Source: a virus. From it: 64,000 nt of DNA. Below the pieces are notes generated by a model. The model saw nothing but the letters and a program-made list of their open reading frames with translations, did no database searches and was not told where the DNA came from. The DNA lies in the IMG/VR virus record IMGVR_UViG_3300048930_000528, positions 1-64,000 of that record; one strand, given 5' to 3'. Numbering within the stretch: position 1 is the stretch's first letter; the number at the start of each line of letters is the position of its first letter. Below, one piece after another: positions 7,924 through 56,838 of this stretch. The translations under genes and the position numbers were made by a program.

Positions 7924-8168
7924 CAGTAGATCGGGGTGTAGGGCGTGGTCTCAATCGGCTCCCCGCCGACGAGGGTCAGTGACTCGCCACCGACAAGCGT
8001 GAATGCCTCGGGCGCAGGGATAACCTGGCCCACTGTTCCAAAGATCACCTTGGGCTTGCGCCACGAGATCTCCGCCCTCAGCGGACTCCACGAAAGGCGC
8101 ACAGTCAGCCGCGGCGCCGCCATGACGGACGGGGCGATGAACTGCGGTTCTCCGAGGACGACGCTCAT
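7923..8168 (-). CDS. Small virion-module hypothetical protein
   Basis: RBS GAGGT, stop overlaps start of tail fibre gene. Confidence 0.6.
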   Translation of the reverse strand: MSVVLGEPQFIAPSVMAAPRLTVRLSWSPLRAEISWRKPKVIFGTVGQVIPAPEAFTLVGGESLTLVGGEPIETTPYTPIY

Positions 8169-8181
8169 GGTGTAACCTCAA

Positions 8182-20967: not shown

Positions 20968-21208
20968 GGTCCTTGTTTTTACCTAATCAAATGCGCCGTC
21001 AAGGTTAACTGCTCTTTACTGTTCCTCGTTTTGCCTCGCCTCTCAAATTATCCACAGGCGGGGTGTTACAGTCTTTTGCTCTAGTTCTTTCCTAAATCGC
21101 TGCTGCTACGAGGCTAGCTTAATAAGCGTGTCCTTCTTAGGTTGACAGATTTGTACCATTTTGCACCCTTTTGCTTGTTCCTTCCTGTGCAGGGAACAGT
21201 TCCCGACG
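20968..21208. promoter_or_regulatory. AT-rich divergent intergenic region, candidate attP/promoters
   Basis: Adjacent to integrase; 10-bp-phased repeats ttgtacc/ttgcacc at 21151-21167; TTATCCACA at 21048-21056; TTGACA at 21142. Confidence 0.4.
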
Positions 21209-22282
21209 ATGCCTCGCCAGCTGACACTCAAGCCGAAGTTCACTCCGTCCCACCCGTCGGCGCCGTGGCGCGTGTACTTCCGCGGCAAGAGCTACTGGTT
21301 CAAGAACGAGGCCGACGCTGTGGCGAAGGCGAAGGATCTGCGTGGCGGCAAGTCGGACCTGACGCTGCGCGAGAGCGACGAGTATCGCTACGCGCGCCAG
21401 CTCCTCGGCCGGGTGCCACTGCTTGAGGCGGTCCGGTTCTACCTCGAGCGGAACCCTACCACCGATCCTACCATGACCGTCGGTGAGGCGATCACGGCGC
21501 ACCTGGCGCGGGCGACCGGCAGGCCGGACTACATGGAGAAAAAGCGATACTTCCTCGGGATTGTCTCTGAGCGGCTGGGCAACGAGAAGCTGGCCGTTGT
21601 CGGACCGGCAAGCGTGCAGGCGCTGATCGACTCGATGACGTCGAAGTGGGGGGCCAACGACGTGCTGAGGCACGCGCGCATTTTCTTCCGCGACTGCATT
21701 CGCCTCAAACTCCTCCGCGAAGATCCGACCGCGGCGTTTCAGGAGCAGAAGGTTCTGCCGAGCAAAGTCATTCTCACCGTCGAAGACACGGCGCACATCC
21801 TGAAGGTCTGCAAGGCACAGTTCCCGGAGATCCTGCCGGCAGTGGCGCTGCAACTCTTCACAGGAATCCGCACGAGTGAAGTGACCCGGTTGGAGTGGAA
21901 GGACGTGCGACTCGGCTCGCTGGTGAACATCGAGCCCCAGGTGGCGAAGACGAGCGAGCGGCGCGTGATAGACTGGTGGCCGGAGGCGCTGACGCACTGG
22001 ATGCCGGCCAAGGCAGGCGAGGGGCCTGTGACGGTTCAGCCCAAGAGCTACGAGGCGCACAAGTGGCAGCTCATCATGGTCTGCAAGGCGTCGAAGTCCG
22101 ACTTCAAGTTTGGGCAGAACGCCTTCCGCCACAGCTTCGCCAGCTTCGGGTGTGCCTACTTCCAGAACGCCGGCAAGGTCGCGCTCCTCATGGGGCACCG
22201 CGACGTGAACATGCTGTTCCGCCACTACCGCGACTACCGCACGAAGGAAGAGGCCGACCGGTACTTTGGCCTACGGCCGTAG
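21209..22282 (+). CDS. int: Tyrosine integrase
   Basis: TGIRTSE (R), AKT (K), NAFRHSF, MGH, HY catalytic motifs; N-terminal arm-binding-like domain. Confidence 0.9.
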   Translation: MPRQLTLKPKFTPSHPSAPWRVYFRGKSYWFKNEADAVAKAKDLRGGKSDLTLRESDEYRYARQLLGRVPLLEAVRFYLERNPTTDPTMTVGEAITAHLARATGRPDYMEKKRYFLGIVSERLGNEKLAVVGPASVQALIDSMTSKWGANDVLRHARIFFRDCIRLKLLREDPTAAFQEQKVLPSKVILTVEDTAHILKVCKAQFPEILPAVALQLFTGIRTSEVTRLEWKDVRLGSLVNIEPQVAKTSERRVIDWWPEALTHWMPAKAGEGPVTVQPKSYEAHKWQLIMVCKASKSDFKFGQNAFRHSFASFGCAYFQNAGKVALLMGHRDVNMLFRHYRDYRTKEEADRYFGLRP

Positions 22283-40926: not shown

Positions 40927-41655
40927 ATGACCGAGCGCCCCATACTATTCTCCGCCCCGATGGTGCTGGCCCTGCTGGCCGACACGAAGATGCAAACCCG
41001 GCGGATTGTGAAGCCCCAGAGGCACCCCTATGGGGAGATGCTGACGTCGGACCAAGTTGCAGCCGAGTTCCTCGGTGAGACGTGCGCAATTCGCTGCCCC
41101 TACGGCGTGCCCGGCGACCGCCTCTGGGTCAAAGAGACCTGGTCCGCTGCCCGAGGCTGGGACCACGAGAAGCCGGTGCGCATCCCCGTAGGCGCGGCGA
41201 TCCGGTACGTGGCGGACGGTGCGATGGCCGGCGACCTTGGCGACGAGAAGCTTGGCGCTGTGCAGTTTGGCCGCAATCGCCCGTCGATCTTCATGCGCCG
41301 GTGGATGAGCCGCATCACGCTTGAGATCACCGACGTTCGGGTCGAGCGGTTGCAGGACATCAGCGAGGCGGACGCCTTGGCCGAGGGCGTGAAGCCCTTG
41401 GATTCCTACGCCCACTACAACATCTCTTCCGACGACGGCACGTGCGTGGCCGTCTCCGAGGACTACATCCACGGCATACCCAAGGTCGGCGACACGTGGC
41501 ACGGACGCAAGGTGGCGCACGTTCAGCACGTGCCGCAGCGAATGCTGCTCAGTGCCCGCGAGCAATACCGTGCGCTGTGGAACAGCATCAACGGGGCCGG
41601 ATCGTGGAACGAGAATCCCTGGGTTTGGGCGATCACCTTCCGCAAACTGTCATGA
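40927..41655 (+). CDS. ASCH/PUA-like conserved phage protein
   Basis: ERPILFSAPMV..TRR, CPYG.PGDRLWVKE, PSIFM, VERLQDISE, NPWVW. Confidence 0.75.
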   Translation: MTERPILFSAPMVLALLADTKMQTRRIVKPQRHPYGEMLTSDQVAAEFLGETCAIRCPYGVPGDRLWVKETWSAARGWDHEKPVRIPVGAAIRYVADGAMAGDLGDEKLGAVQFGRNRPSIFMRRWMSRITLEITDVRVERLQDISEADALAEGVKPLDSYAHYNISSDDGTCVAVSEDYIHGIPKVGDTWHGRKVAHVQHVPQRMLLSAREQYRALWNSINGAGSWNENPWVWAITFRKLS

Positions 41656-42575
41656 GCATCCGCACCAACAGCTACTTCAGCGGCGCCGGCCTGATGGACC
41701 TCGGCCTGCAACGTGGCGGGCTGCATGTCCAGGAGAGCTACGAGATCGATGAGACCTGCTGCGAAACGTTGCGTCAGAACTTCGACCACAAGGTGGTGCA
41801 GATGGACGTATCCAAGAAGCTGGTCTTCGATGAATCCGAATGCGACGCCATGGTGGCAACGTTCCCGTGCACCAAGTACTCGACCGCGGCCGACATCAAC
41901 GGCGCGAGGACGGGTGACGAACTCTTCCTGCACTTCTTCCGGCATGTGGCTATCCGCCGGCCGGAAGTGTACGCCGTGGAGAACGTGCCCGGCATGCGAA
42001 AGTTTCCCGTGGTGATGGAGGCGCTGACCAGGCTGCCCGACTACTACGTCAACGTCTTCTGTCCGGTTAGCAGCACCAACTGGCTGCCGCAGAAGCGTGA
42101 CCGACTGATCATCATCGGATCACGCAAGCGGTTCGGCTGGCGACCGCCCGAGGCGGGGCGCGTGCTGACGCTGGCTGAGATAATCGAAGAGAATCCGCAG
42201 GTCGAGATACCGGACTACGTGTACGCCAGGATCAACGGCAAGTACCGGGACCAGCCGATCGTGAGCGACCCTGCCAAGGGTGACGTGGCGCCGACGTGTG
42301 TTGCACACTACGCCAAGGATCTCGGGACACGCCTCGTGGTGGATCGCCGGTATCCGCATGGCGTGCGTCCGTATTCGGTGAGGGAGTACGCCCGGCTGCA
42401 AGGCCTGCCAGACACGTTCACTTTCGCTGGCACGAGTCGAGACGCTTACCGCATGATCGGCAACGGCGTATCCGTGCCCGTGGGTGAGTGGCTGGGCCGT
42501 GAGATTGTCCGCTACTTTGGGCGAGGCGCGAGGCCTCAGCCGCTCAGGCCGTTCCAGTTGGATCTTCTGTCATGA
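41652..42575 (+). CDS. C5 cytosine DNA methyltransferase
   Basis: FSGAG, FPC, ENV, Q.R.R, EYARLQG, IGNGV motifs. Confidence 0.9.
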   Translation: MSIRTNSYFSGAGLMDLGLQRGGLHVQESYEIDETCCETLRQNFDHKVVQMDVSKKLVFDESECDAMVATFPCTKYSTAADINGARTGDELFLHFFRHVAIRRPEVYAVENVPGMRKFPVVMEALTRLPDYYVNVFCPVSSTNWLPQKRDRLIIIGSRKRFGWRPPEAGRVLTLAEIIEENPQVEIPDYVYARINGKYRDQPIVSDPAKGDVAPTCVAHYAKDLGTRLVVDRRYPHGVRPYSVREYARLQGLPDTFTFAGTSRDAYRMIGNGVSVPVGEWLGREIVRYFGRGARPQPLRPFQLDLLS

Positions 42576-42872
42576 CCTTCCTCAAAATCAACATCCTGCC
42601 CGAGATGAACTGCGGCGAGCGCGTCTTCCGCTGGGAGGTGCACGGCCATCGCCGGGGCAACGTCCTGGGCGGCGGCTACTGCGCCAAGGTGGAAGACGCG
42701 TGTGCGGACGCCATCGCGTGGGTGAAAAACCAGCCGTGGCACGTGCTGCTGGACCAGAACAAGAACCAATGAAAACCATCCTGCTTCGCGCCGTGCTGCA
42801 CGGCCTGTTCTACATCGGCTTCGGCCTGTTCGCCACGCTCGTCTTCGGCGGGTGGTGGCTGGGGTTTTGACC

Positions 42873-43399
42873 ATGAAATACATCATCGAATACGTCCGGC
42901 CCTCTTGCATGGAGGGCTACGAGAACTACGACCAAGCCCCATGTGTATTCTTCCGGCACTACGAAGCCGTGGACGAGGAGGACGCAGTGTCTAAGGCCAA
43001 AGCCTTTGCCGAGAAGGATGGCGACGTGGTCATCTCGCATGTCAGCACCTACAATTCCTACAAGCAATTCCTCAGCACCGTCCTCGACGACCCGGACTGC
43101 GCGCTGGATCAGGTCAAGTAACCAAAGCCGCCATGAAATACTTAATCGAATACGTCTACATCGAAGACGTCATCAAGCACGGCGACTGCTCTGTGCATGT
43201 CCGCCACCACGAGGCCGAGTCAGAAGTCGATGCACGTGAGCGCGCCATCCAAGTGCTCGGCGACGACGTGTGCATCTGCTCCGTCACTACCGAGGAGCAG
43301 TACCGGCGGTTTACCGAAGAGTCACTGTCCAACCCAATGAACTCACTCGATGCGCTCGCTGCCGAACGCGGCATTGACGAGGGGGAGGACGACCAATGA
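42873..43399 (+). CDS. Tandem paralogous small genes (42873..43121, 43133..43399)
   Basis: MKYIIEYV..RHYEA..DA vs MKYLIEYV..RHHEA..DA. Confidence 0.7.
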
Positions 43400-44004
43400 A
43401 ACCCACCACCCTCATCGGCCCAGCCGGCAAGCTCCAGCGCACGCTGTCCCTTGGCGCCGGCCCCATCAAGCTGCTCTTCCACGGCCCGCCCGGCGTCGGC
43501 AAGAGCGAGCTGGCCAAGTCTCTCGCCGGCCGGCTCGTCGCCTCCGCCCTCGAGATCGACCGCATCAACGGATGCGACCTCGGCGTTGATCGCATCCGCG
43601 AACTGGCCGGCACGCTGCGCCACCGCTCCATGTTCTCGGAGTGGAACGTCGTCATAATCGAGGAGATCGACAAGGTTCCCGCCGTTGCTCAGGCCCTCAT
43701 CCTTACCATGCTGGACGAGGTGATGCCGCACGTTGCGGTGATCGCCACGACCAACGAGGGGCAGGGCAAGATCCCGCCCCGCCTGTGGTCCCGCTTCGAG
43801 CGGTACGAGGTGGGCGCGCCGACGGAGAAGGAGATTCGCCAGCTCGTCATGGATACCGGCGTGCCGGATGCGCAGGTTGACATGATCGTGGCGTCAGCCT
43901 CCGGCAACGTCAGGGCGGCCGTGCTCGATGCGCAGTCGTGGTTCCGCGTGAACAAGCCGGACCCTGCGGCGGCGACGCAGCAGCTCGCCATGCTCTTTGC
44001 CTGA
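43396..44004 (+). CDS. AAA+ ATPase, clamp-loader-like
   Basis: GPPGVGKS, IIEEID, ATTN, SRF, GNVRAA. Confidence 0.8.
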   Translation: MKPTTLIGPAGKLQRTLSLGAGPIKLLFHGPPGVGKSELAKSLAGRLVASALEIDRINGCDLGVDRIRELAGTLRHRSMFSEWNVVIIEEIDKVPAVAQALILTMLDEVMPHVAVIATTNEGQGKIPPRLWSRFERYEVGAPTEKEIRQLVMDTGVPDAQVDMIVASASGNVRAAVLDAQSWFRVNKPDPAAATQQLAMLFA

Positions 44005-44017
44005 ACCCATCAATCCT

Positions 44018-44671
44018 ATGGAAACTAAACGATACGAATCCATGCCCGGAAATCACATCTCGACCGCCTGCAAAGAGGCCGTGGAGATGGCTCGTCGCGA
44101 CTCCTGCAATGTGGAGTTCGACTTCAACGAGATCACACTCACCGCCAAGCCCGACACCGATCCCGCCGCGCTCGCGCAATCCTACTCCGACGAGTGCGAG
44201 CGCCGCCACCGCGCCTACACCGCATCGCCTGAATACAAGGCGCGGCAGGAGGAAGCCGAGCGGAAGGAGCGCGAACGCAAGGCCAAGGTGGATGCCGTGC
44301 TCGCCGACGCCCCCGCAAACATGACGCTGCGCGATCCCGAAGGATGGAAGAAGGCGTGCGACGCAAACCAAGACCCATACGGCGGCGCGGTGATGACCTA
44401 CGCCGAACGCTGGGCGCGAATGATGGAAGCTCGCATGGCGAAGGGCGAACGCATCGCGGACATCGCGGAGGAGTGCTCACACCTCGCCAATGAAGAGGGC
44501 ATCACCGGCTTCATGTATGGCGCCGCCGTCATGACCCTGTCCTCAGTCTGGATCCACGGTGAGGCGCTGCGCTTGTGGCACAACCTCAAGTACCAACTCC
44601 GCGACGAAGGTAAGCGCGCCAACGACAACGGCGGCGTGCTCAATCCGGCTGTCCTGCGGATGGGTGAATAG
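44018..44671 (+). CDS. Conserved hypothetical phage protein
   Basis: Good ORF, GITGFMYGAAV motif; followed by 44681..44890. Confidence 0.65.
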   Translation: METKRYESMPGNHISTACKEAVEMARRDSCNVEFDFNEITLTAKPDTDPAALAQSYSDECERRHRAYTASPEYKARQEEAERKERERKAKVDAVLADAPANMTLRDPEGWKKACDANQDPYGGAVMTYAERWARMMEARMAKGERIADIAEECSHLANEEGITGFMYGAAVMTLSSVWIHGEALRLWHNLKYQLRDEGKRANDNGGVLNPAVLRMGE

Positions 44672-45480: not shown

Positions 45481-46478
45481 ACACCACCACCCAACCACCC
45501 AAGACCAAGCCGACCCGCATGGATGCACAGGAGGTCATGGACAGCATCGCCACCCAGCTTCCCGAGATCCTTGGCCACATCCACGCCGACGGCGACTGGC
45601 TGTGGTACACAGGCCCGTCGCTCCAGTCCTCGCCAGCCACCCGTCTGGTGCTCAAGGACATCGGCTTCCGGTTCGCGCCCCGCGGCCACGTCATGCCTGA
45701 AGGCAACGGCATCGGATCGTGGGGCCACTCGTGCCTCCGGCCCACGCCGCGCCGCCGCAAAGGCGACCGCCGTGCGGCCACTGCCGACACGCCCGAAGCC
45801 CATGCCGTCGATCCCACGGCGGCACTCGCTGCCCTCTTTGCGTAACCCACGAAACGAACTGACAGCCTCAACCTTTCCATCATCATGAGTACCATGCCCG
45901 CACCCGACATTGCCGCGGTCTTTACCGCCGCCCAAGCCAAGCTCCTCCACCTCGCCGTCGGCCTGCGTGACCGCGAGCCGCTCGCCATGCAGCGTATAAA
46001 CGCTTTCGTCCTCAACAAGACCGGCGCCAAGTTCAACGAGTACCTCACCGGCCCGACGCCCGTCGTCGAGAAGCTCGCCGTCGTGCAGGAAATCACCGCC
46101 ATCGTTGAGTCCGGCGACCTAAGCAAGCTGCCCTCGGCGCCCAACGGCCAAGCCTCGGCCCCGCCGACTGCGCCTCGCACCACCCCGCCGCCGGCCCCGC
46201 CCAAGGTCGAGCAGCCCAAGCAGCCCGAGGTCAAGCAGCCCGAGCCGCCTCCGGCCCCGCCCGCCCCGCCTGCCGTCGACGTGGACGACCTCGCTGACGA
46301 CGACATCGACGCCGACGAACTGGCCGGCGCCATCCAGACCATCGTCAAGGTGGCGGCCAAGCGCAAGGAACCCGCCGCCCCGCCGGCCCCGGCCTTCACC
46401 GAAGCTGACGTGCGCCGCATCATCCGGCACGAACTGGCCGATGCCATGGAGAAGATCGCCAAGGCGCTGCGTGCGTAA
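45477..46478 (+). CDS. Two hypothetical genes (45477..45845, 45885..46478)
   Basis: Coupled ORFs with phage codon usage. Confidence 0.6.
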
Positions 46479-46541
46479 CACCGGCAGTCTGCCACCGGAG
46501 GGGCGAAGCCCCGCAGGTTGGCAGTGATGCCTTGGTTCGAC
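46473..46541 (-). mobile_element. attC-like site A
   Basis: Minus strand GTCGAAC-caag..ctgccaacc..ggtggcag..-GTTACGC with central GGGGC/GCCCC hairpin. Confidence 0.75.
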
Positions 46542-46550
46542 CTTCTTTTT

Positions 46551-47068
46551 ATGAGCTTCGAATACCTGACAACATCCCTCGAAAAAACTCACGCGGCAGC
46601 CCGTGACATGGTCTATCGCGCGACCTTCTTACTCGCGAAACGCGATGACGGAGTGACGGCCTGCGCTCGCCTGCCGCGCCGAAACTCCCGCAAGCTGGAA
46701 ATAGGCTACTGCCTCGGCACGGGTCGAATGACTCATTGGGTCGAAACCGGCATCCTACCGACCGAACATCCCGGCGCGCTCGAATACTGGGTGAAGAAGG
46801 CGTTCTTCTACGCGGACGGACACATAGCGTGTGAGAAAAGGAAAAGCGCATGAGCTACGAAAACACTCAGTGCGTCTGCGGTGGGCGAAAGCTGACCGAC
46901 ACCATGCTGTGCGCCGACTGCGAGAAAGCAGTCGAAGGTACCTTCGACCGCCGCGAGATGGAAAATCCCGCAGCGACATGGGAGCAGCGGCGCAATGCGG
47001 CGATTCGCTGCCTCGCGGTCGCCCGCCGTCGCAACCCAAGCCTACCGCTTACCTATGCGTGCCGATAG
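46551..47068 (+). CDS. Two cassette-borne hypothetical genes (46551..46853, 46850..47068 zinc finger)
   Basis: Bounded by GTTCGACCT (46535) and AGGTCGAAC (47067). Confidence 0.6.
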
Positions 47069-47167
47069 GTCGAACGCACAAGCTGACCTATGACCACCGC
47101 GCCCATGACTACCGAATCCACAACAGACGCCGACGCGGTGGGCATTAAGTCCAGCGCCTTGTTCGGC
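47069..47167 (-). mobile_element. attC-like site B
   Basis: Minus strand GCCGAAC-aaggc-gctggac..ccaccgcg/cgcggtgg..gtcagc-ttgtgc-GTTCGAC. Confidence 0.85.
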
Positions 47168-47725
47168 GTGATTTACGCGGACCCGCCGTGGCGGTATGGC
47201 TTCTCTCAATCGGACTCACGCGCCATCGAGTCGCAATATCCGACAATGACCGACGAGGAAATCTGTGCTATCAAGGTGCCTGCTGCCAAGGATGCCGTGC
47301 TCTACCTGTGGGCGGTGGCTCCACGGCTCGCCGCAGGGCTGCGCGTCATGGAAGCGTGGGGATTCGACTACAAGACTTGTGCTGTGTGGGACAAAGAAAA
47401 GGTGGGCATGGGCTACTGGTGGCGCGGACAGCATGAAATCCTCATGGTCGGAACTCGCGGGAAGTTCTCGCCGCCTCCGCAAGCACTCCGCAAGTCGAGC
47501 GTGATTCGCTGCCCGCGTGGACGGCACAGCGCGAAGCCTGACCAAGTGCGCGACTGGATCGGGGAATGGTATCCCGACGTGCCCAAGCTGGAAATGTTCT
47601 CTCGGCTAAAACGACCGGGCTGGGAGGTCTTTGGAAATCAGGTCGAGTATGACCTGCTAAGCGGGGATTTTTCTTCGCCGAACGTCGCGGGTCAGACACG
47701 ACCCGCCGAAAACTCCAACCTGTAA
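47090..47725 (+). CDS. MT-A70 family N6-adenine methyltransferase (cassette)
   Basis: IYADPPW, YLWA, WGFDYKT, HSAKP, LEMFSR. Confidence 0.9.
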   Translation: MTTAPMTTESTTDADAVGIKSSALFGVIYADPPWRYGFSQSDSRAIESQYPTMTDEEICAIKVPAAKDAVLYLWAVAPRLAAGLRVMEAWGFDYKTCAVWDKEKVGMGYWWRGQHEILMVGTRGKFSPPPQALRKSSVIRCPRGRHSAKPDQVRDWIGEWYPDVPKLEMFSRLKRPGWEVFGNQVEYDLLSGDFSSPNVAGQTRPAENSNL

Positions 47726-47807
47726 CTCCCATGAAAAACCAAAATCCAACTGTAGTCTCTAGCCCGCAGGATCAGTGCGGGTCGTTGTCTGGGAACGCTG
47801 GTTCGGC
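47677..47807 (-). mobile_element. attC-like site C
   Basis: Plus-strand arms cagacacgacccgc / gcgggtcgt[t]gtctg between GCCGAAC and GTTCGGC. Confidence 0.85.
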
Positions 47808-48015
47808 TGCCTTTGCTTTTCCAGTGGGCTCCCGCGTGAAGATCATAGCCGCCGACCCAGAGTGCCCCGCCGACTTTATCGGCTCCGAAGGGACAGTGGT
47901 GAGAATCGCCCCAGCGGATGAAAACTGCTCAGACGATATGTATTCGGTGCGCACGGATAGCGGTAAGCAAGACGGATTCTTTTCAGATGAGCTGATTTCT
48001 TTGCCGAACCAGTGA
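47731..48015 (+). CDS. Small SH3-like hypothetical protein (cassette)
   Basis: FPVGSRVKI..GSEGTVV..YSV; starts inside attC C. Confidence 0.65.
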   Translation: MKNQNPTVVSSPQDQCGSLSGNAGSAAFAFPVGSRVKIIAADPECPADFIGSEGTVVRIAPADENCSDDMYSVRTDSGKQDGFFSDELISLPNQ

Positions 48016-48028
48016 TTGTGCCACGTGC
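48003..48028 (-). mobile_element. attI-like terminal site of array 1
   Basis: Minus strand GCACGTGGCACAATCACTG-GTTCGGC; core present, no partner arm. Confidence 0.5.
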
Positions 48029-48088
48029 GTCCGCATGGACTTGCGTAACTCAATATAAACCAACTCAAACCCAAACCACCCGTGCGAC

Positions 48089-51000
48089 ATGATTAAAGAC
48101 CAACGATCCGGCATCTCTGCGGAGAACCTCCAAGAGATCATCGAGGCCGGCGTCAGCGCAGCGCACTCGCTCCAGGGCGGAGCGCAGCAGTACAGCACGC
48201 CTCAGTGGCTGGCCAACGCCTGCCGCCAGCTGATCACGGACGCCCGGCCTTCGTGCGTCCTTGATCCCCAAGGTGCGGCAGGCAACCTCGTCAATGCCCT
48301 GCCCGATGGCGTCACCCGCTACGTCACGGACATCGACAACCGCATGGGCGAGGACGATGCCTCGCACCTCATCAAGCGCATCAAGGGCAACTGCGTCTAC
48401 ATCTTCGAGCTGTTCGATGAACTGTACCCGCACGTTCAGTTCCCGTGCATCGTCGCCAATCCACCCTTCGGCATCCGCTGGAAGCAGGCCGACGGCACCA
48501 CAATCGACAGCACTCAGTGGACGTGGGACCTCATCAAGAAACGCCTGACCATTGGCGGCTGCGGTTTCCTGATCTCCAACGCCAACACTCTTGAGCGCCT
48601 CGGCATCACCGCGGACCCGTGGGTCTACATCGTGCAGCGCTTCCCGGCCGGCGGCATCTGGCCCGACTGCAACGTTGAGCTTGGCATCGTGCACTTTGCC
48701 AACAGCGCGTCCAATATCCTGCCGCGAAAGCAGGTTGTGACCTGGGACCGTGTACCCACGGCGAGCGACATCATCCGCCGCCTGTCTGGCGACGTTGCCA
48801 ATGCGCCGTACCGTCGGGCGACGTACGCCAACCCATTCACCGAGTTTGAGGTGGTGTCCAAAATCATTTCCGAGGAGGCGAAGAACCGGCCCCAGTTCAA
48901 CATCTACCTCGACAAGAATGGCATGCTGCGGACCTACCTCAGCCTGCGCCATCACCACAAGTTCAAGGAGGACGACGTCAAGAAGCTGTTCCGCGTGAAC
49001 AACTGCCACCCACTATCCCTCACCACGGAGCGCGACACGCGGAAGCTCATGTTCGAGCTGGCCAACGCCGGCATCTACACTATCCAGCCCGAGGCCAAGG
49101 CCGCCATCGAGCAGGCGCTTGCCGAAGTCGCCAGCCTTGCCTGCCCAATCCGCCCGGTCACCGACTTCGAACTGGTCGCCTACGCCGACGAAGAGGACAC
49201 GCTTGTCGCCATCTCCGGCACGGTTGACGGCATCCACCTCACGCCCGGCAAGCGGTACGAAGTTGGCACTGGCACGTACACCTTCACGGATCGCTTCACC
49301 CGCAAGAAGATCCACTTCAACGAGGAGACCGAGGAGACCACGATCGACGAGCACGACTGCGAACTCTCCGGGCAAGATCGCTACGTGCAGATCACGGACG
49401 ACCGAGGCATGCAGCACCGCTTCATGGAGCGACCCGAGACCGGCATCAAATGGATGCACCCGGAGTCCATGCTTTGGACTTTGTTCAAGCGTCCCTTCGT
49501 TCCCACCGTTGGCGAAGTCATGGCTGATTGCGTGGCGACCAACCTCCAGAAGATGGCGTTCTCTGAGCTAGTCGCTGGCTTCACCTATTTCCCCGGCCAG
49601 CGTGACTACTATTCCCGCATGGCGTGCAAGGATTATGGGCTGGTGGCTGCGAGTACCGGATGCCATGCGAAAGGGACGCTAATCATGATGAGCGATGGCC
49701 GAAATAAAATCGTGGAAGACATCATTGTTGGTGATTGCGTGATGGGTTGGGACTCGACGCCGAGGCGGGTCACTCGCTTGGCTCAAGGGCGTCAGCAGAT
49801 GGCCAAGATAATCCCCACTAAAGGAGATCCGTTCGTCGTCAACTTGGACCATATTTTAACGCTGGTTAAGACCGGAACAAGTTCGTCGGTCGGCGGGGAC
49901 GTAATTGACGTGAAGGTCAGAGATTACCTCGGATGGAAGCCATCGCAAAAGCATATTTATAAACTCTTCCGCAAGGAGATTAGCCTACAAGCAAAACCAA
50001 TCGACTCCCTTTCGCCGTACTTCATGGGGGTTTACATTGGCGACGGGACATCGACGTCGTGGCAGGTTGCAATTACAAAGCCCGACAAGGAGGTTGAGGA
50101 TGCTGTTGCCGATGAGTGCTCAAAGTGGGGATGGCGATACAGGACCGCGTTGCGGTCTGGGTCGGAAACGAATAAGACACACTTCATCCCAGGTCACGGC
50201 ATAAAGCGAGAGCTTTATCAACATGGGCTTCTTGGAATACACTCAAGCAATAGGTTTATTCCAGACGCTTACAAGTACAACAGCCGTGATGTGAGGCTTG
50301 AGGTTCTTGCTGGCATCATTGATAGCGACGGCCACCTTTGTGATGCCGGAACATTTGACTACATAAGCCAATCGCAATCTCTTGCCGATGATGTTGTGTG
50401 GTTGGCTAGATCAGTCGGGCTTGCCGCTTACGTGAAGCCATGCCAGAAGTATTGCCAGACCGGAGGCGGAGGCACGTATCATAGGGTTTCCATATCAGGC
50501 GAACTCTCTATCATTCCAACAAGAATCAAGCGCAAGCAAGCCGCGCAACGCAGGCAGAAGAAAAGCGTCCTGCGAACAGGATTCAAAGTTGAGCTTCTGC
50601 CAGAGGATGACTACTACGGGTTCAGTATTGAAGGCGACGGGCGGTTCTTGCTTGGCGACTTTACAGTGACCCACAACACCGGCAAAACCCTGGGGGCTTT
50701 GACACTCATCAGCCTCAAGGCGCCGCGCCGTTCGCTCATCATCGCTCCGCAGGGAACGATGCGCTCGTCCGGCTCGGAGGAGGAGGTTGATTATCAGGCA
50801 TCGCAGTGGGTGCAGGAGATCACGCGCTTCGCCCCGCTCGAGCCCGTGTTCCAGTTGTTCAGCATGCAGGATTACCTGTCCGTCCTGCACGCCAACGGCG
50901 GCGTGCTTCCGCCCGGCATCTACGTCACCTACCCGCAGGCTTACTTCTCCAACAGCGCCTTCGAGTCCTTGCCTGCCACATGGGAAAACCTCGACGCCTT

Positions 51001-52420
51001 CGAGACAGAGGAAAAGTTCTGCCGGCGCATGGGCCTGCCGTTCAGCAAGGATACTCCCGTGGAGCGCCACTACCACACTGGCGTTGGCTCGGCCAAGAAC
51101 GGTATCCGGTGCGTGGCGACGCCGTCGCTGTCCACCGTCATCGCAACCAACCATGGCGAGTGGGACATGGTTGTCTTGGACGAGGCGCACCTTTACCAGA
51201 GCCTTGAATCTTGCATCACGAACAACATGATCCGGCTTCAACCGCGGTTCAGGTTCGCACTCACTGCCACACCAATCAGCAACATCATCACGAACATATT
51301 CAGCCTCATGGGTTGGCTGTGCGTGAAGGACTGGTACAGGGGTGGGATGCGTAACGCCGCATGGCCCTATGCCGTGGACGAGGGGCATCGGTTTTCGACG
51401 ACATTCCTTGCCACCGAGATCGACCGCACGGCGCAGCTCAAAGCCAAGATGAAAGGCAAGAAGGGGTGGGGCAAGATCGGCATCAGGCCGTCGCCCGTCA
51501 TCAGTTCCCCGGCTCGCCTGCTCAAGCTCCTCAAGCCGACGATGGCGTACATCTCCAAAGAGGACTGCAACCCCAACCTCCAGCCGTGCACCGTGTCCGA
51601 TGTCCGCGTGCCAATGGGTCGCGAGCAGGCCAAGCTCTATGCGTACTGGCTGGAGCGGGCCAACTACGTTCCCGAGTTCAAGAACCCGCTGACGATCGCC
51701 CAGGTTCAGATGTCCCGGCTGCGTGGCGTCTGTGCCTCGCCGGCCAGCCTCGACTACACCCGCGGCATGGCCCGGTCCAACTTCAACCCGAAGACCGTCA
51801 CCATCCTTCAACTCATCCGTGACTGCCTCCGCAAGGGCGAGCAGGTGGTTGTCGTCTCGGCTCGTGTTGGCCAGTCAAACGAGTTGGCGCGTCGCCTTTC
51901 CGAGGCCGGAGTCCAGATCGCACGCATCGACTCGACCGTGCCGGCGGAGATGCACACGGCTGAGGCCAACAGGTTCAAGCGTGGCGACGCCCGCGTCATG
52001 CTCATGGGCATCAAGTGCGCACAGGGTCACTCGTTTGACCGATGCCCCAACCTCATCGTTGGCTCGCTCGAGTGGTCCTACGGCACGCTCGACCAGGCGA
52101 AGGGCCGGGTGTGGCGCCTGACCTCGCCTCAGCCCGTCAAGGTGTGGATCGTCCTTCACCAGAACACGATTGAGGAGCTCCTGTTCGACCGGGTTGCGCT
52201 CAAGCAGGACGCCGCCACGCTGTGCCTTCACGGCAAGCGGGTGCCGCGTGACTTCAAGACGCTTGACCCGAGCGAGGTGCTGGCCGAGCACATCGTTGAC
52301 TTCGACCACGAAGGCGAGACGCGGTCCGAATCCGAGTGCGAAACGCAGTGGCCCGACCTGCGCAAGCAGCTCGTCCTCGCCAACAACAGCGGCATCCCGG
52401 CCGGCTTCGCCGCGGCCTGA
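48089..52420 (+). CDS. DarB-like N6-methyltransferase + SNF2-type helicase fusion with intein
   Basis: QYSTP, VLDP..AAG, NPPF; STG|TGKT split by intein, LDEAH, TATP, QAKGRVWR. Confidence 0.85.
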   Translation: MIKDQRSGISAENLQEIIEAGVSAAHSLQGGAQQYSTPQWLANACRQLITDARPSCVLDPQGAAGNLVNALPDGVTRYVTDIDNRMGEDDASHLIKRIKGNCVYIFELFDELYPHVQFPCIVANPPFGIRWKQADGTTIDSTQWTWDLIKKRLTIGGCGFLISNANTLERLGITADPWVYIVQRFPAGGIWPDCNVELGIVHFANSASNILPRKQVVTWDRVPTASDIIRRLSGDVANAPYRRATYANPFTEFEVVSKIISEEAKNRPQFNIYLDKNGMLRTYLSLRHHHKFKEDDVKKLFRVNNCHPLSLTTERDTRKLMFELANAGIYTIQPEAKAAIEQALAEVASLACPIRPVTDFELVAYADEEDTLVAISGTVDGIHLTPGKRYEVGTGTYTFTDRFTRKKIHFNEETEETTIDEHDCELSGQDRYVQITDDRGMQHRFMERPETGIKWMHPESMLWTLFKRPFVPTVGEVMADCVATNLQKMAFSELVAGFTYFPGQRDYYSRMACKDYGLVAASTGCHAKGTLIMMSDGRNKIVEDIIVGDCVMGWDSTPRRVTRLAQGRQQMAKIIPTKGDPFVVNLDHILTLVKTGTSSSVGGDVIDVKVRDYLGWKPSQKHIYKLFRKEISLQAKPIDSLSPYFMGVYIGDGTSTSWQVAITKPDKEVEDAVADECSKWGWRYRTALRSGSETNKTHFIPGHGIKRELYQHGLLGIHSSNRFIPDAYKYNSRDVRLEVLAGIIDSDGHLCDAGTFDYISQSQSLADDVVWLARSVGLAAYVKPCQKYCQTGGGGTYHRVSISGELSIIPTRIKRKQAAQRRQKKSVLRTGFKVELLPEDDYYGFSIEGDGRFLLGDFTVTHNTGKTLGALTLISLKAPRRSLIIAPQGTMRSSGSEEEVDYQASQWVQEITRFAPLEPVFQLFSMQDYLSVLHANGGVLPPGIYVTYPQAYFSNSAFESLPATWENLDAFETEEKFCRRMGLPFSKDTPVERHYHTGVGSAKNGIRCVATPSLSTVIATNHGEWDMVVLDEAHLYQSLESCITNNMIRLQPRFRFALTATPISNIITNIFSLMGWLCVKDWYRGGMRNAAWPYAVDEGHRFSTTFLATEIDRTAQLKAKMKGKKGWGKIGIRPSPVISSPARLLKLLKPTMAYISKEDCNPNLQPCTVSDVRVPMGREQAKLYAYWLERANYVPEFKNPLTIAQVQMSRLRGVCASPASLDYTRGMARSNFNPKTVTILQLIRDCLRKGEQVVVVSARVGQSNELARRLSEAGVQIARIDSTVPAEMHTAEANRFKRGDARVMLMGIKCAQGHSFDRCPNLIVGSLEWSYGTLDQAKGRVWRLTSPQPVKVWIVLHQNTIEELLFDRVALKQDAATLCLHGKRVPRDFKTLDPSEVLAEHIVDFDHEGETRSESECETQWPDLRKQLVLANNSGIPAGFAAA
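49661..50677 (+). mobile_element. Intein with LAGLIDADG homing endonuclease (339 aa)
   Basis: Starts CHAKGT, LAGIIDSDG, ends VTHN followed by Thr; lower GC. Confidence 0.92.
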
Positions 52421-52667: not shown

Positions 52668-53669
52668 ATGCCCACGACAAAGAAAGCCGCAGGACTCAAG
52701 ATCAAGGCGATGGACTCCACCAAGGTGACGCCGGCGGCGATCCGCGCAGCCAAGAAGATCCTTCGGGCCGCCGAAGAGTCGGGCATGCAGGATGCAATCC
52801 TCGCTGCGCTCATGCAGCGGAAGACCGTACCCGTGAAGCAGGCCTTGGCCGAGTGGCACCTATGGCGGAAGGCGAACTCGTCAGCGTCCACGCTCCGCAC
52901 CAACCGGCTGGCACTAGATCAGTTCTTCGATGGGCTCGAGGCCGCAAACTGGCCGGTGTCAAAAATCACGATCCAGCACATTGACGCATGGGTTAACAAA
53001 GACGACGCCTGCAAGCGGGCCACCCGCGAGGCAAAGCTCGCCGCCATCCGATCGTTCTACAAGTTCGTCACCGCGAATGCCTATTGCCAGACCAACCCGG
53101 CGCAGCTGGTGCATGTTCGCATTCGCGACATGACGCACGCTCAGCTGGAGCGCACCGTGCGCGAGCCCATCACCGAGCACGAGTACCGGCATATCATGGC
53201 CAACACCGAAGGCTTTTGGAAATGGGCAACGGCGATCAGCTACTGGGCGGGGCTGCGCATGAGCGACGTGTTCGCACTCCAGTGGGCTCAGATCATGCCC
53301 ACCGAGATCGTAGCCTGGGCGAAAAAAGACGGCGACCGGCTAGTGCTTCCACTCAACCACCCGCTCATCGGCGGAGGGGAGTTGGTGCCTGTGCTGTTCG
53401 AGGTATTGAGTAATCGCCAAGACGATACATACTGCTTCCCCGATCAGCATCGCGAGATGGCCGACATCGAGAAGCGTTCCAAGTTCTCGGTCTACTATAC
53501 ACGCCTGCTTGCCGGGCTAGGCATTGAAGGCAAGAGCTTCCATTCGCTGCGGCATGCGTTTGCCACCCGGCTCGCCAACGCAGGGGTGACACCTGAGCAG
53601 ATCGGGCGGTGGATGGGGCACAGTTCGACGCGCATCACCGAGGGGTACATCCACCGCGGCAAGCGATGA
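52668..53669 (+). CDS. Tyrosine recombinase (Xer/Int-like, no IntI insertion visible)
   Basis: GLRMSD, AKKDG, FHSLRH, MGHSS, GY. Confidence 0.9.
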   Translation: MPTTKKAAGLKIKAMDSTKVTPAAIRAAKKILRAAEESGMQDAILAALMQRKTVPVKQALAEWHLWRKANSSASTLRTNRLALDQFFDGLEAANWPVSKITIQHIDAWVNKDDACKRATREAKLAAIRSFYKFVTANAYCQTNPAQLVHVRIRDMTHAQLERTVREPITEHEYRHIMANTEGFWKWATAISYWAGLRMSDVFALQWAQIMPTEIVAWAKKDGDRLVLPLNHPLIGGGELVPVLFEVLSNRQDDTYCFPDQHREMADIEKRSKFSVYYTRLLAGLGIEGKSFHSLRHAFATRLANAGVTPEQIGRWMGHSSTRITEGYIHRGKR

Positions 53670-53709: not shown

Positions 53710-54188
53710 ATGAGTAACCCACAGAACGAACTGACGCCGTCCGCTGGCCCGAATTGCGCTGTGGCGTCTGGTTCGCCTCCGGGGCTCTACAACCTATACG
53801 TCCGCCACACCGATGGGCGCACAAAGAAACTGACGGGCTACGCGATGACACATCACGAGTGCTGCGTGATGAAGAGCAAACTAAGCGAATGGACGCAGGC
53901 TCGCACACTGCTCGTAAAGGAGACGAAATGAAACACGACCCAGACCACTACCTCACGCAGCCGATGGACAATCAGGAGGCGGCGCACAATCGCCGCGTGG
54001 CCGTGACGGCCGAGAACGTCGCCGCGTGTGCGCAAGCCATCCGCGACCTCGACCGCATCACGCCGCGCCCGCTCACCGCCGAAGACCAAGCGCGTGCCGT
54101 GCTCACGTTCTTGGCGAACACCAAGGTGACCGATGCGCAGCCCAAGGCGAACGACGCCGGACCGGGTAGCAATGCGCATTCGGTCTAG
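53710..54188 (+). CDS. Two cassette-borne hypothetical genes (53710..53931, 53928..54188)
   Basis: Between GTTCGCC (53771) and GGCGAAC (54113); ATGA overlap. Confidence 0.6.
53727..53777 (-). mobile_element. Truncated attC-like site E
   Basis: Minus strand GGCGAAC-cagac-gccacagcgcaa arm (same as site I arm); partner arm degenerate. Confidence 0.6.
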
Positions 54189-54201
54189 CGAATGGTTCAG
54201 C
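54113..54201 (-). mobile_element. attC-like site F
   Basis: Arms gaccgatgcgca / tgcgcat[t]cggtc between GGCGAAC and GTTCAGC. Confidence 0.88.
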
Positions 54202-54209
54202 CCTCTTTT

Positions 54210-54482
54210 ATGCCCTCACCAATCGAAAGAATGATCGACGCCGCGACCGGCTACACGCCGCCGCCAGCGCCGAAGAAACGCACGCTCCCGACTGCCGAAG
54301 AAAAGCAGATAGCGACCGATGCCGGAAACGACGTCATCTGGTATATCGACGCGCAGTATCCCGCGATGTGGGACGGCGTGCCGAAGTCAGCGCGGACCAG
54401 CGTGAAAAACGCCGTCTACAACCGCGTGATCTTAATCTTGCTGAACGCCAAGATCAGCAACGCGGGGACGAAAACAGAATGA
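54210..54482 (+). CDS. Hypothetical protein (cassette)
   Basis: Between GTTCAGC and GCTGAAC; stop lies in attC G. Confidence 0.65.
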   Translation: MPSPIERMIDAATGYTPPPAPKKRTLPTAEEKQIATDAGNDVIWYIDAQYPAMWDGVPKSARTSVKNAVYNRVILILLNAKISNAGTKTE

Positions 54483-54569
54483 CTCTATGAGCACGAAAAT
54501 CGAAGACAAACCCATAGCGAGCGCCGGAGCGGACAGCTCCCCGCGTTGCGCTGTATCGCCTGGTTCGAC
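54440..54569 (-). mobile_element. attC-like site G
   Basis: Arms gatcagcaacgcgggga / tccccgcgtt[gc]gctg[t]atc between GCTGAAC and GTTCGAC. Confidence 0.88.
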
Positions 54570-54771
54570 GATTGAAACGACCGAACGCAAGGTGATGGTC
54601 GCGCTCTGCGGACTGTGCATCGCCGTCTTCTGCGCGGCTCTTCTCGGCATCGCTTTCTACGTGCATGTCGTCGCCGGGCTATTCGCTCTCGCGCTCATCG
54701 CGTGGTGGCTCGGCTCATCGATGGCCGAAGTGCTCAAGGAAACTCGCGAGCGTGATTCGTCGAACGACTAG
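54487..54771 (+). CDS. Two-TM membrane protein (cassette)
   Basis: Starts inside attC G loop; long hydrophobic segment. Confidence 0.7.
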   Translation: MSTKIEDKPIASAGADSSPRCAVSPGSTIETTERKVMVALCGLCIAVFCAALLGIAFYVHVVAGLFALALIAWWLGSSMAEVLKETRERDSSND

Positions 54772-54854
54772 GTATGCCAGCCCTACCCGCCATCGATGTT
54801 GATTCGCCAGTAACTGCCCGCCGGGTAGGGATTGGCATGACCGACTTGTTCGGG
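54759..54854 (-). mobile_element. attC-like site H
   Basis: Arms ggtatgcca.ccctacccg / cgggtaggg..tggcat[g]acc between GTCGAAC and GTTCGGG. Confidence 0.88.
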
Positions 54855-55331
54855 GTTGTGGACGTGGTGCCGAGTGACATCGTGCTGACCCCGGAACCAA
54901 TCGCGCAAGCCGTGGTGGAACGCTTCAAACCATCTGGCCGCGTGCTCGATCCGTGCAAGGGAGATGGTGCCTTCCTGAAGTTCATGCCTGGTGCTGAGTG
55001 GTGCGAGATTCGCGAAGGCCGATGCTTCTACGACTGGAAAGAGCCGGTGGACTGGATCGTCTCGAATCCACCTTACAGCGTCTTCTCGGACTTCCTTCGG
55101 CACAGCTTCACGGTGGCGGAAAACATCGTCTATCTGATCCCCGTCAACAAGGCGTTCAACTCTGACAAGATGATGCGCGAAATCTGGTCATGGGGAGGCG
55201 TGAAAACCATCTTCGTGATTGGCTCCGGTGGATCGCTGAACTTCCCAATCGGCTTCTGCATAGGAGCTGTTCACTTCGTGCGCGGCTATCGGGGCGGCGC
55301 GAATGTGGAATTTTATACCCCGAACACCTAG
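54774..55331 (+). CDS. Small N6-adenine DNA methyltransferase (cassette)
   Basis: TP..IA, VLDPCKGDGAF, WIVSNPPYS. Confidence 0.85.
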   Translation: MPALPAIDVDSPVTARRVGIGMTDLFGVVDVVPSDIVLTPEPIAQAVVERFKPSGRVLDPCKGDGAFLKFMPGAEWCEIREGRCFYDWKEPVDWIVSNPPYSVFSDFLRHSFTVAENIVYLIPVNKAFNSDKMMREIWSWGGVKTIFVIGSGGSLNFPIGFCIGAVHFVRGYRGGANVEFYTPNT

Positions 55332-55412
55332 CTCAGACATGGCTGGCTCTCCCTCAACTCTCGAACACTTGGCGGCCCCGCGCCAGCCATTGTCTGTGGC
55401 GTCTGGTTCGCT
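55319..55412 (-). mobile_element. attC-like site I
   Basis: Arms cagacatggctggc / gccagccat[t]gtctg between CCCGAAC and GTTCGCT. Confidence 0.88.
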
Positions 55413-56130
55413 GCTTCTTTGGAACGCGGACTGCATAGAAGTGCTGCCACAAATCACGGCGGCGGCGGTTATCACCGATCCGCCCTATGGCATCAACGAT
55501 GCAGCTTTCGATTCGGGGCCACGCGAAGGAAAACGCAAGGGAGGCGATAATACTTGGCATCCGGCAAGCGATTGGGATGCGGAGATAAAGCCGGAATGGT
55601 GCGCTGCGGTATGCGCTGCCGCGCCGGTGGTCGCATGGATGGGCCACTGGAGAAAACGCGGCATGGTAGAGGCAGCGATGCCCCACAAACTGCGCGCGGA
55701 AATAGTGTGGGCAAAAGACTGCCATGTAGGCCCGCCATGTCCGGTGGCAATGCAGGATGAGCGCGTGTGGCTATTCTCGCGCGAAGGCATCACGGCTAAG
55801 CGATTTGACACGACCGTGTGGAGCGTTCCGATAATCCCGACGTGGGCACATAAGCACCACAAAAACGAGAAGCCGGTCGCGCTGATGGCGCGAGCGATCT
55901 ACCTGCTGACATCCGAAGGTGATACCGTGCTCGATCCATTCATGGGGAGCGGCACGACGGCAATCGCGTGCATCCGGACGGGCCGCAAATTCATCGGGGT
56001 GGAGCGCGACCCCGCGCACTTCCAAACGGCAGTCGAGCGCATCCGCCGAGAACTGGCACAGGGCGACCTGTTTTTGCCAGCGAACACTGAGGTCAGAGAA
56101 TCGCGCCCTGACCCGACCAAACAACCCTGA
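55339..56130 (+). CDS. N4/N6 beta-class DNA methyltransferase (cassette)
   Basis: ITDPPYG, H..EKP, VLDPFMGSGTT, FIGVE. Confidence 0.9.
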   Translation: MAGSPSTLEHLAAPRQPLSVASGSLLLWNADCIEVLPQITAAAVITDPPYGINDAAFDSGPREGKRKGGDNTWHPASDWDAEIKPEWCAAVCAAAPVVAWMGHWRKRGMVEAAMPHKLRAEIVWAKDCHVGPPCPVAMQDERVWLFSREGITAKRFDTTVWSVPIIPTWAHKHHKNEKPVALMARAIYLLTSEGDTVLDPFMGSGTTAIACIRTGRKFIGVERDPAHFQTAVERIRRELAQGDLFLPANTEVRESRPDPTKQP

Positions 56131-56187
56131 ACCTTCAACGAACAATCAGAGCGGCTGCACGCGATTCTCTGCACCGTCTGGTTGGGA
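56079..56187 (-). mobile_element. attC-like site J
   Basis: Arms ggtcagagaatcgcg / cgcgattctctg[c]acc between AGCGAAC and GTTGGGA. Confidence 0.88.
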
Positions 56188-56196
56188 ATTTCCATC

Positions 56197-56457
56197 ATGG
56201 ACCAAATACTAAAAGCACGATCTGCAATCGTCGCGGAACTCAAACGCCGCGCTCTGGAAAAAGACCCGAACGTAAGGCCACTGAATCCGGATGCCGCCCT
56301 TCGCTGGCACAAGCCGCAGGACAACTACTATTCGGGCGCTGGCGAAATGGCGTGCCCGATCTGCGAGGCAGGGAAACTGCGCTACAGCCGAAGCGGCTAC
56401 AATGGGCATGTCCACGCGGGCTGCACAACGGAAGGGTGTGTGTCATGGATGGAGTGA
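56197..56457 (+). CDS. Zinc-ribbon hypothetical protein (cassette)
   Basis: CPIC..YNGHVHAGC..C..WME. Confidence 0.7.
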   Translation: MDQILKARSAIVAELKRRALEKDPNVRPLNPDAALRWHKPQDNYYSGAGEMACPICEAGKLRYSRSGYNGHVHAGCTTEGCVSWME

Positions 56458-56467
56458 CCGCGACACT

Positions 56468-56580
56468 TCCCAACGAAAAAGGTGAGCCGCGCTCGCCGAA
56501 GAAAGGACAATGACATGAGCGGAGAAAAGACATCCGAAGACGTGACGGCTGCGAGCGTTGGCTCTACCGACGGGTTCGGC
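56468..56580 (-). mobile_element. attC-like site K
   Basis: Minus strand GCCGAAC-ccgtc-ggt[a]gagcc[a]acgctcgc..gcgagcgcggctcacc-tttttc-GTTGGGA. Confidence 0.9.
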
Positions 56581-56838
56581 GATGGCTGCGACCACTGTGA
56601 CACCTTCGGAGGGCAGAAGACCTACGCGAACCAAGCGTGCCTGCCGCTCAACGGTCGCGTCGTGTGCGTGGACTGGTGCATCCATCAAATCGTGGCGGCG
56701 CTCAACGCCGGCGGCGTGCGCACGACTGCGTGCTGCTGCGGTCATGGGCGAATGCCGGGCCGCATCGACCTTGAGGACGGCCGCATACTCACGATCTCTT
56801 CGCCGAACAAGGCGGATATGCCGACGTGCAGCAAATAA
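56515..56838 (+). CDS. Cys-rich hypothetical protein (cassette)
   Basis: VDWCI..LN..G..T..CCCGHG motif; starts in attC K. Confidence 0.7.
   Translation: MSGEKTSEDVTAASVGSTDGFGDGCDHCDTFGGQKTYANQACLPLNGRVVCVDWCIHQIVAALNAGGVRTTACCCGHGRMPGRIDLEDGRILTISSPNKADMPTCSK
56802..56829 (-). mobile_element. attI-like terminal site of array 2
   Basis: Minus strand GCACGTCGGCATATCCGCCTT-GTTCGGC; core present, no partner arm; resembles 48003-48028. Confidence 0.5.

Follow-up and report, generated by a model that had tools for sequence, protein, structure and literature searches.

What are the three hairpins that separate two backbone genes in IMG/VR virus record IMGVR_UViG_3300048930_000528, and by what agency were the genes that accompany them brought there? 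The hairpins and their genes occupy positions 46473-48009 of the window, by which we mean the whole 64,000-nt stretch that was analysed (bases 1-64000 of the record, which is 72,049 bp long, has direct terminal repeats, and is rated complete), and they are inserted between a gene for a Pro-rich protein and a gene for a DarB-like methylase/helicase protein. Comparison of their sequence and predicted fold with bacterial genomes indicates that the hairpins are attC-type sites, and the locus very likely represents three integron-type cassettes in a phage backbone that have been moved as units, most plausibly by an integron integrase of the host acting in trans. Comprising more than one clustered attC-type site (at least two define the type) with no integron integrase nearby, the array is a CALIN-type element (cluster of attC sites lacking an integron integrase). 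A second array of this kind lies further downstream in the window.

All three hairpins that the preliminary description had read from the letters alone (site 1, 46473-46541; site 2, 47069-47167; site 3, 47677-47807; all on the + strand) are recovered by covariance models, the first of them weakly. One model, R1, was built from eight phage hairpins of the window, while the parameters of the other, R2, come solely from 81 bacterial sites, these being R1 matches in 25 loci chosen around earlier matches, 23 of which belong to the Verrucomicrobiota metagenome-assembled genomes (MAGs) G003, G005, and G006. Sites 2 and 3 are training members of R1, which returns their exact boundaries at 87 and 71.3 bits, respectively; R2 scores them at 42.2 and 52.0 bits. 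Site 1 is a weak member (10.1 bits with R1, 20.5 bits with R2), for which R2 gives boundaries of exactly 46473-46541 with an E-value of 0.018 for the 160 kb searched and 0.008 for the genome. The sites are long imperfect hairpins closed by the core motifs, and their single-strand folding energies alone are modestly unusual (z of -2.67, -1.57, and -2.36 for sites 1 to 3). The 7-mer core and its complement occur in six copies, strictly alternating, between 46535 and 48009, the last of them belonging to a terminal half box (48003..48009, + strand) identified by motif match, with no model match downstream of it. Within the window the core occurs 48 times against 29.35 expected, a count reached by 0 of 100 shuffles, and a scan for the site geometry gives eight matches on the + strand (six of them within the two arrays) and none on the - strand, against a mean of 1.13 matches on both strands together in 30 shuffled genomes. 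The three sites of this array span no more than 1.34 kb. Core motifs also alternate at 42-45 kb, and these were rejected as further cassettes, there being no model match above about 8 bits in that region.

The sites share a common geometry: an outer box of 5-7 bp ending in AAC, 8-9 unpaired bases, an inner box of 6 bp, a further stem, a variable loop, and then the mirror image, in which an extra T is present on the 3' arm and the last box starts with GTT. When eight window hairpins are aligned, they show a 7-bp R box with an invariant AAC/GTT (8/8), separated by a 9-nt spacer from a 14-bp helix whose 3' arm has a one-base bulge. Changes on both sides of a pair are seen in 12 of the 14 pairs of the helix beyond the R box, a count over eight sites that had been chosen for pairing and that consequently leans towards structure. 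In the bacterial sites, the letters of the triplets are kept in 78-81 of 81, and two T's, including the bulged base, in 81 of 81. Site lengths are 69, 99, and 131 nt in this array, 89-130 nt in the other array, 52 nt in a related viral locus (L001), and 86-106 nt in bacteria; attC sites have an overall length of roughly 57-141 nt and a variable terminal loop. The bulge adjoins the inner box, and the extra base is present in eight of nine window sites, being absent at 56079-56187 (arms read by eye). In attC sites, extrahelical bases confined to one arm determine strand polarity. The position of the extra base agrees with the attC bottom strand as described in Nivina et al. 2016.

The proposal that these hairpins are of attC type was borne out in bacterial genomes. 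R1 finds tandem same-strand arrays in Verrucomicrobiota, with 30 sites in G003 and 20 in G006 (73 with R2), as well as seven same-strand sites in a Verrucomicrobiota MAG contig (L021), and R2 finds the site family in at least 20 of 121 sampled Verrucomicrobiota genomes (E <= 1e-4), a lower bound with 38 candidates scored per genome. Three of the five genomes examined contain an integron integrase above the curated cut-off of TIGR02249. In contig G005:C351, the integrase start is immediately preceded by six sites (the TIGR02249 match is in two pieces, of 271.7 and 180.3 bits, the cut-off being 265), and in G006:C242 two sites lie directly upstream of a 415-bit integron-integrase match. In both contigs the sites are on the integrase-coding strand, i.e., in the layout of a complete integron, which indicates that the sense strand of the models corresponds to the attC bottom strand. 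The same assignment follows when the 3' arm is compared with the AAC-bearing arm, the former having the extra base. Applied in turn to the phage, R2 returns each of the eight strong window sites (31.7-54 bits) as well as site 1, and its sole further match in the 72-kb genome is a marginal one at 53725-53777. Because one site family forms tandem arrays next to integron-integrase genes, the phage hairpins are classed, on grounds of sequence, as attC-type sites.

The boxes that flank the genes indicate what has been moved. Cassette A (46479..47074) would consist of site 1 and two small open reading frames (ORFs), cassette B (47075..47682) of site 2 and an MT-A70 DNA methyltransferase gene, and cassette C (47683..48008) of site 3 and a gene for a small SH3-like protein, all on the + strand. 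The cassette-bounding core pairs are real, the boxes at the ends of each cassette being perfectly complementary over 9, 8, and 7 bp, respectively. More generally, in every one of the ten window cassettes the two boxes flanking a gene (the right box of one site and the left box of the site that follows) pair without a mismatch over 7-9 bp, and deviations from the consensus in one such box are matched in its partner, whereas the two boxes within one hairpin match over just 3-7 bp. In site 1, the outer part of the left box is derived from the backbone and its pairing with the right box is 3 bp. Six bacterial arrays display the same tendency (mean pairing of 7.4 bp at cassette ends vs. 5.2 bp within sites), as do two other phage records (4-13 bp vs. 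3-10 bp), namely G131, which is complete at 44,650 bp and carries 15 sites (a single array of 14 spans the record ends, at 41501-44647 and 4-2242), and G132, with five sites in two arrays. Crossovers within the conserved triplet would make a chimera of each arrayed hairpin and would account for stronger pairing at cassette ends than within hairpins. Both window arrays open with a hairpin whose outer left box is ill-fitting and backbone-like, and both close in a half box with no hairpin behind it (48003-48009 and 56802-56808). These openings and endings are consistent with the AAC of the 5' box as the place of crossover and with a cassette composed of a hairpin and the gene that follows it. The alternative of a 3'-box crossover, by which a start codon would come from the previous cassette, was considered and rejected, given the half-box array ends and the fact that the upstream hairpin travels with the MT-A70 gene. 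From two platforms in one genome, the preliminary description had argued for a general mechanism rather than one captured integron fragment. This argument is strengthened by the two arrays found in the window, by the two in another phage record, and by the unit boundaries, and arrays and boundaries together favour cassette-wise, site-specific recombination over a single capture.

The MT-A70 cassette provides a further view of these boundaries. Homologues of its gene occur in a Verrucomicrobiota MAG contig (L085, 85% best-segment identity) and in two viral records (L097, the locus of G131, 74%; L098, 72%), each with an R2 match directly before the gene on the same strand. In all three cases, the DNA ahead of the cassette resembles the window at no more than background level; similarity sets in at the AAC of the upstream box, continues through the hairpin, the ATG in its inner stem, and the gene, and breaks off at the AAC of the downstream box. 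The proteins of the neighbouring window cassettes are absent from these three loci. Relatives carrying the same genes without hairpins had been named in advance as the finding that would speak against cassettes, and here the close MT-A70 homologues carry the hairpin, with homology bounded by the conserved triplets. A different situation is seen in another viral record (G133, locus L099), which encodes a 65% MT-A70 homologue without a site; homology starts at residue 25, just behind the hairpin, the first 24, hairpin-encoded residues being missing, and the gene may here exist in a non-cassette form.

The orientation of the genes distinguishes phage arrays from host arrays. Polarity was scored by the longest frame between sites, relative to the sense strand of the model (the attC bottom strand), in a sample of three phages and one site family. 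The ten intervals of the window comprise seven sense, no antisense, and three ties, and those of G131 and G132 comprise ten sense, one antisense, and four ties, giving 17 sense, one antisense, and seven ties in 25 intervals for the three phages together. By contrast, the 56 intervals of the host arrays comprise no sense, 44 antisense, and 12 ties (Fisher p = 2.4e-14 for sense vs. antisense, ties left out). These frames include recognizable genes on both sides: sense ORFs of the phages bear MT-A70, N6_N4_Mtase, and Dam domains, with methyltransferase domains on the sense strand in all three phages (G131 alone has at least three DNA methyltransferases there, of the N6_N4, Dam, and MT-A70 types), and antisense ORFs of the hosts bear the Pfam domains Schlafen AlbA_2 with HATPase_c_4, and DUF1990. 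The phage cassettes thus have the hairpin first and the gene behind it on the bottom strand, which is the reverse of the host cassettes, and they do not show the canonical orientation of a top-strand gene followed by its attC.

Which recombinase moved these cassettes? Neither G131 (15 sites) nor G132 (five sites) contains a tyrosine recombinase or any PF00589 match, which makes a host integron integrase acting in trans the most likely agent. Under this reading, the integrase would be supplied by a host that is probably a member of the Verrucomicrobiota, and the point of insertion would be a secondary site with a GTT triplet rather than attI. Crossover would separate the second A from the C in the conserved triplet of the 5' box (AA|C), and cassettes would move as units by site-specific recombination, the + (coding) strand of the phage carrying the version that would correspond to the recombinogenic bottom strand of bacterial attC. 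The genes would then be read through from phage promoters, with start codons in or just behind the hairpin. Recombination of this kind, in the phage or with it, may be going on at present.

We would like to stress that several points weigh against this reading. The phage has no integron integrase of its own, the only candidate near the arrays (52668-53669) scoring 31.9 bits against the TIGR02249 cut-off of 265. Nor does it show the attI site and Pc promoter that accompany intI in a complete integron, although no search aimed at these two was made. The polarity is reversed, and in a host attI these cassettes would face the promoter. Most ORFs extend 7-70 nt beyond the inferred crossover into the next site. 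Site 1 is weak under both models (E 0.48 with R1), R2 was built on sites found by R1, so that the models are not fully independent, and the models were briefly calibrated, so that all E-values are rough. With respect to the sites themselves, the spacer of 8-9 nt between the R box and the next helix is longer than in textbook attC sites, and the fourth letter of the core is mostly C/G rather than the R/Y of the consensus RYYYAAC / GTTRRRY (the canonical letter is found in 22 of 81 bacterial sites), the triplets themselves fitting. A relative, L013, keeps the Pro-rich and DarB-like genes, with about 1.7 kb of other genes and no site between them. Finally, an empty-site join of about 46479 to 48009 had been predicted; its position agrees with the crossovers derived here (46478|46479 and 48008|48009), but no relative close enough to display the empty allele was found, and the join 46478|48009 was not seen.

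Three other explanations were weighed against transfer by a host integrase. In the one that survives best, the array is a dead relic, i.e., a piece of a host array that was captured once by illegitimate recombination and kept for its genes, with no further movement in phages. The absence of the right kind of integrase from the phage and the degenerate state of site 1 and of the site at 53725-53777 are compatible with such an origin, and a route by illegitimate recombination is discussed in Qi et al. 2023 (PMC9892861). Host polarity would nevertheless be expected in a fragment copied from a host, and sense genes are found in 0 of 56 host intervals vs. 7 of 10 in the window. Moreover, there are two separate arrays, each closed by a clean half box, the same MT-A70 cassette recurs in other phages, in different arrays and with boundaries exactly at the triplets, and no window cassette protein turned up in 488 kb of loci made up largely of host array DNA. 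We therefore regard a relic as improbable.

A somewhat weaker alternative is that the phage's own tyrosine integrase (52668-53669) acts on the sites, the two forming a private cassette system without host integron integrases. This enzyme is Xer-like, combining SAM_1 with the catalytic domain, and enzymes of the Xer type do act on folded single strands (CTX phage); it also lies between the two arrays, and in L001 a single site stands just upstream of the homologous integrase. The same site family nevertheless adjoins true integron integrases in bacteria, G131 and G132 carry their sites without any PF00589 match, and the synteny of the DarB-like and integrase genes is kept in three relatives with no sites at all, so that this alternative appears quite unlikely. 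The second tyrosine integrase of the phage (21161-22282) does not look like an integron integrase, matching phage integrase families in a comparison made with PHROGs only. That the hairpins act instead in RNA, as elements of intercistronic processing, termination, or translation control in a phage operon, is highly improbable, since the co-orientation of all sites with transcription, the stop and start codons inside them, and the view of attC sites as weak terminators (cited in Qi et al. 2023, PMC9892861) are outweighed by the antisense position of the same sites in 44 of 56 bacterial intervals (sense in none), by the tie of the site family to integron integrases, and by chimeric boxes and triplet-exact homology boundaries, which are signs of DNA recombination. 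An added effect in RNA, besides recombination of DNA by a host integrase, is conceivable.

If cassettes are indeed moved by a host integrase, their reversed orientation raises the possibility that Verrucomicrobiota phages keep a mirror-image cassette pool of their own while using the integron machinery of their hosts, a proposal that we make tentatively and hold to be somewhat short of probable. Were it true and general, phage and host pools would be kept apart despite being served by one enzyme: a phage methyltransferase cassette in a host attI would face the promoter, and a host defence cassette in a phage array would lie antisense. Alternatively, the foldable strand may be placed where phage replication or transcription exposes it, and the arrays would be fast-shuffling anti-restriction toolkits. 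In either case, the pattern would bear on the choice of strand in cassette dynamics. Integrons are known as bacterial stockpiles of defence and resistance genes, and here it is a phage that has ten cassettes in two arrays with clean boundaries. As its methyltransferase cassette is shared, hairpin included, with phages lacking a recombinase, counter-defence traffic by way of a host integrase becomes directly testable. The site model may also provide a way to predict the hosts of uncultured phages.

Comparison with known systems shows both resemblances and departures. Inverted cassettes occur in chromosomal integrons (e.g., toxin-antitoxin cassettes), where they are a minority in bacteria and usually have their own promoter; the phage cassettes resemble these in having the gene on the opposite strand relative to attC, and here this holds for nearly every cassette of three phages. 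With the sedentary integron arrays of Verrucomicrobiota (G003, G005, G006), they share the site family, the invariant triplets, the bulged T, and the chimeric R boxes, but the Verrucomicrobiota arrays have an adjacent integron integrase and antisense genes, whereas the phage has no such integrase and sense genes. No cassette proteins are common to the window and the Verrucomicrobiota arrays (488 kb of loci). The closest precedent is the set of phage CALINs of Qi et al. 2023 (PMC9892861), which describes 17 phage attC clusters without an integrase, five methyltransferase cassettes, and recombination of phage-borne attC sites with attI1 under IntI1. The array of the window is like these phage CALINs (PMC9892861) in having at least two attC sites without a nearby integrase, cassettes in the same direction, and DNA methyltransferase cargo with a proposed anti-restriction use; it is unlike them in its inferred Verrucomicrobiota host, in the arrangement of arrays of three and seven cassettes around a DarB-like gene and a phage integrase, and in its bottom-strand genes. 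Clusters of phage attC sites with methyltransferase cassettes are accordingly already published, and the mirror-image polarity appears to be new. The polarity of genes relative to sites is not stated in the main text of Qi et al. 2023 (PMC9892861), on which its supplementary tables may bear, and the accessible parts of the literature on phage or viral attC sites and inverted cassettes yielded nothing further on this point. Insertion of cassettes outside attI at a GTT/AAC triplet of the backbone also recalls the attG insertions of Loot et al. (bioRxiv 10.1101/2022.09.11.507474), which concern bacterial genomes, unlike the two phage intergenic hot spots seen here, each with several stacked cassettes.

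The second array (53725..56808, + strand) has seven cassettes and lies directly behind the phage integrase; it is probably the one that the preliminary description took as the first when it called the array at 46473-48028 a second one. Its sites, matched by R1 or R2, are at 53725-53777 (marginal), 54113-54201, 54440-54569, 54759-54854, 55319-55412, 56079-56187, and 56468-56580, all on the + strand; boxes flanking its genes are complementary over 7-9 bp, and its terminal half box (56802-56808) was identified by motif match and box analysis. From 53.7 to 56.6 kb, almost all gene junctions have such a hairpin. Pfam matches identify an N6_N4 DNA methylase (55339-56130) and a weak N6 methylase-like gene (54774-55331) among its cargo. 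In the closest relative, L001, the homologous integrase abuts a conserved large - strand gene and there is no array, whereas the window has 3.5 kb of cassettes between the two; more distant relatives have 0.7-3 kb at that place, with no sites. Because L001 is empty at the second array and L013 holds other genes at the position of the first, both positions are variable spots.

These relatives were obtained by alignment of the DarB-like protein, which gave four viral and ten genome loci; among these, sites are found just in L001 (one) and L021 (seven, in canonical polarity). Searches of viral contigs with the Pro-rich protein or with the N-terminus of the DarB-like protein alone gave no relatives. 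The site of L001 (52 nt, 33.2 bits with R1, with a 3-nt loop) lies between the DarB-like gene and the integrase, in a region (5045-5326) where it overlaps the end of an 89-amino-acid (aa) Cys-rich ORF; the window has at that place an unrelated 66-aa ORF and no site. In L021, a DarB-like homologue is followed by the seven sites (3595-9227); a 482-aa Schlafen AlbA_2 / HATPase_c_4 gene belongs to this array, and the contig yielded no further gene of the phage.

The cargo of the first array is as initially described, namely two small ORFs, an MT-A70 methyltransferase, and an SH3-like protein, the methyltransferase being identified by Pfam and the SH3-like protein by a structure model. The ORFs of cassette A (46551-46853, 100 aa, and 46850-47068, 72 aa and Cys-rich) encode proteins without a family match in Pfam, PHROG, or NCBIfam. 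The MT-A70 ORF (47090-47725; Pfam MT-A70, E 2.2e-17; PHROG DNA methyltransferase) begins with an ATG at 47090 within the inner stem of site 2 and extends 43 nt into the next cassette, its stop codon lying within site 3, which also contains candidate start codons of the SH3-like gene. The methyltransferase likely serves against host restriction, as those of the second array probably do. The SH3-like ORF occupies 47731-48015, and its conserved domain begins at about residue 24-30. In an AlphaFold2 (AF2) model with a predicted local distance difference test (pLDDT) score of 87.5, the protein of cassette C is an SH3-like barrel (a single-sequence fold, at 44.8, was too poor), and its fold comes closest to PetP, the prophage protein YorP, PsaE, and KOW domains (query-normalised TM-score of 0.75-0.77 for PetP and YorP). 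Five homologues of this protein were found; a word index returned the protein itself alone, and an alignment-based locus search of viral contigs returned none.

With regard to the genomic setting, the phage encodes a large terminase subunit, a virion protein, a DnaB-like helicase, an exonuclease, and two tyrosine integrases. One of the latter is the Xer-like backbone gene between the arrays (52668..53669, + strand; PF00589 and SAM_1), and the other (21161-22282), with matches to PHROG phage integrase families, lies where - strand structural genes give way to + strand early genes. A DNA search with 45800-48200 gave no plasmid match and, in phages, just one 118-bp methyltransferase match, and no match to any of 4227 Rfam families reached the gathering score in the window. 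The first array sits inside an accessory block on the + strand, with a C5 methylase, an AAA ATPase, a Tad4-like protein, a DUF2958 protein, and the Pro-rich ORF upstream, and this backbone block looks like a counter-defence region. The Tad4-domain protein (type I Thoeris inhibitor) is encoded at 43997-44671 (E 2.5e-31), with the AAA ATPase and the DUF2958 protein as neighbours. The Pro-rich backbone gene (45885..46478, + strand, 197 aa, from the ORF list) is directly upstream of the array, and its stop codon falls inside the chimeric left box of site 1; its product has no Pfam, PHROG, or NCBIfam match, and a homologue is likewise upstream of the DarB-like gene in L013. Downstream of the array, the gene for the DarB-like methylase / SNF2 helicase (48089..52420, + strand; Pfam SNF2-rel_dom, Helicase_C, Hom_end_hint, and Hom_end) is interrupted by an intein, with a Hint domain from residue 525 and a homing-endonuclease domain at residues 726-786. 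Its 131 homologues are mostly of about 1100 aa and without an intein, and several of 1270-1510 aa also have a Hint domain.

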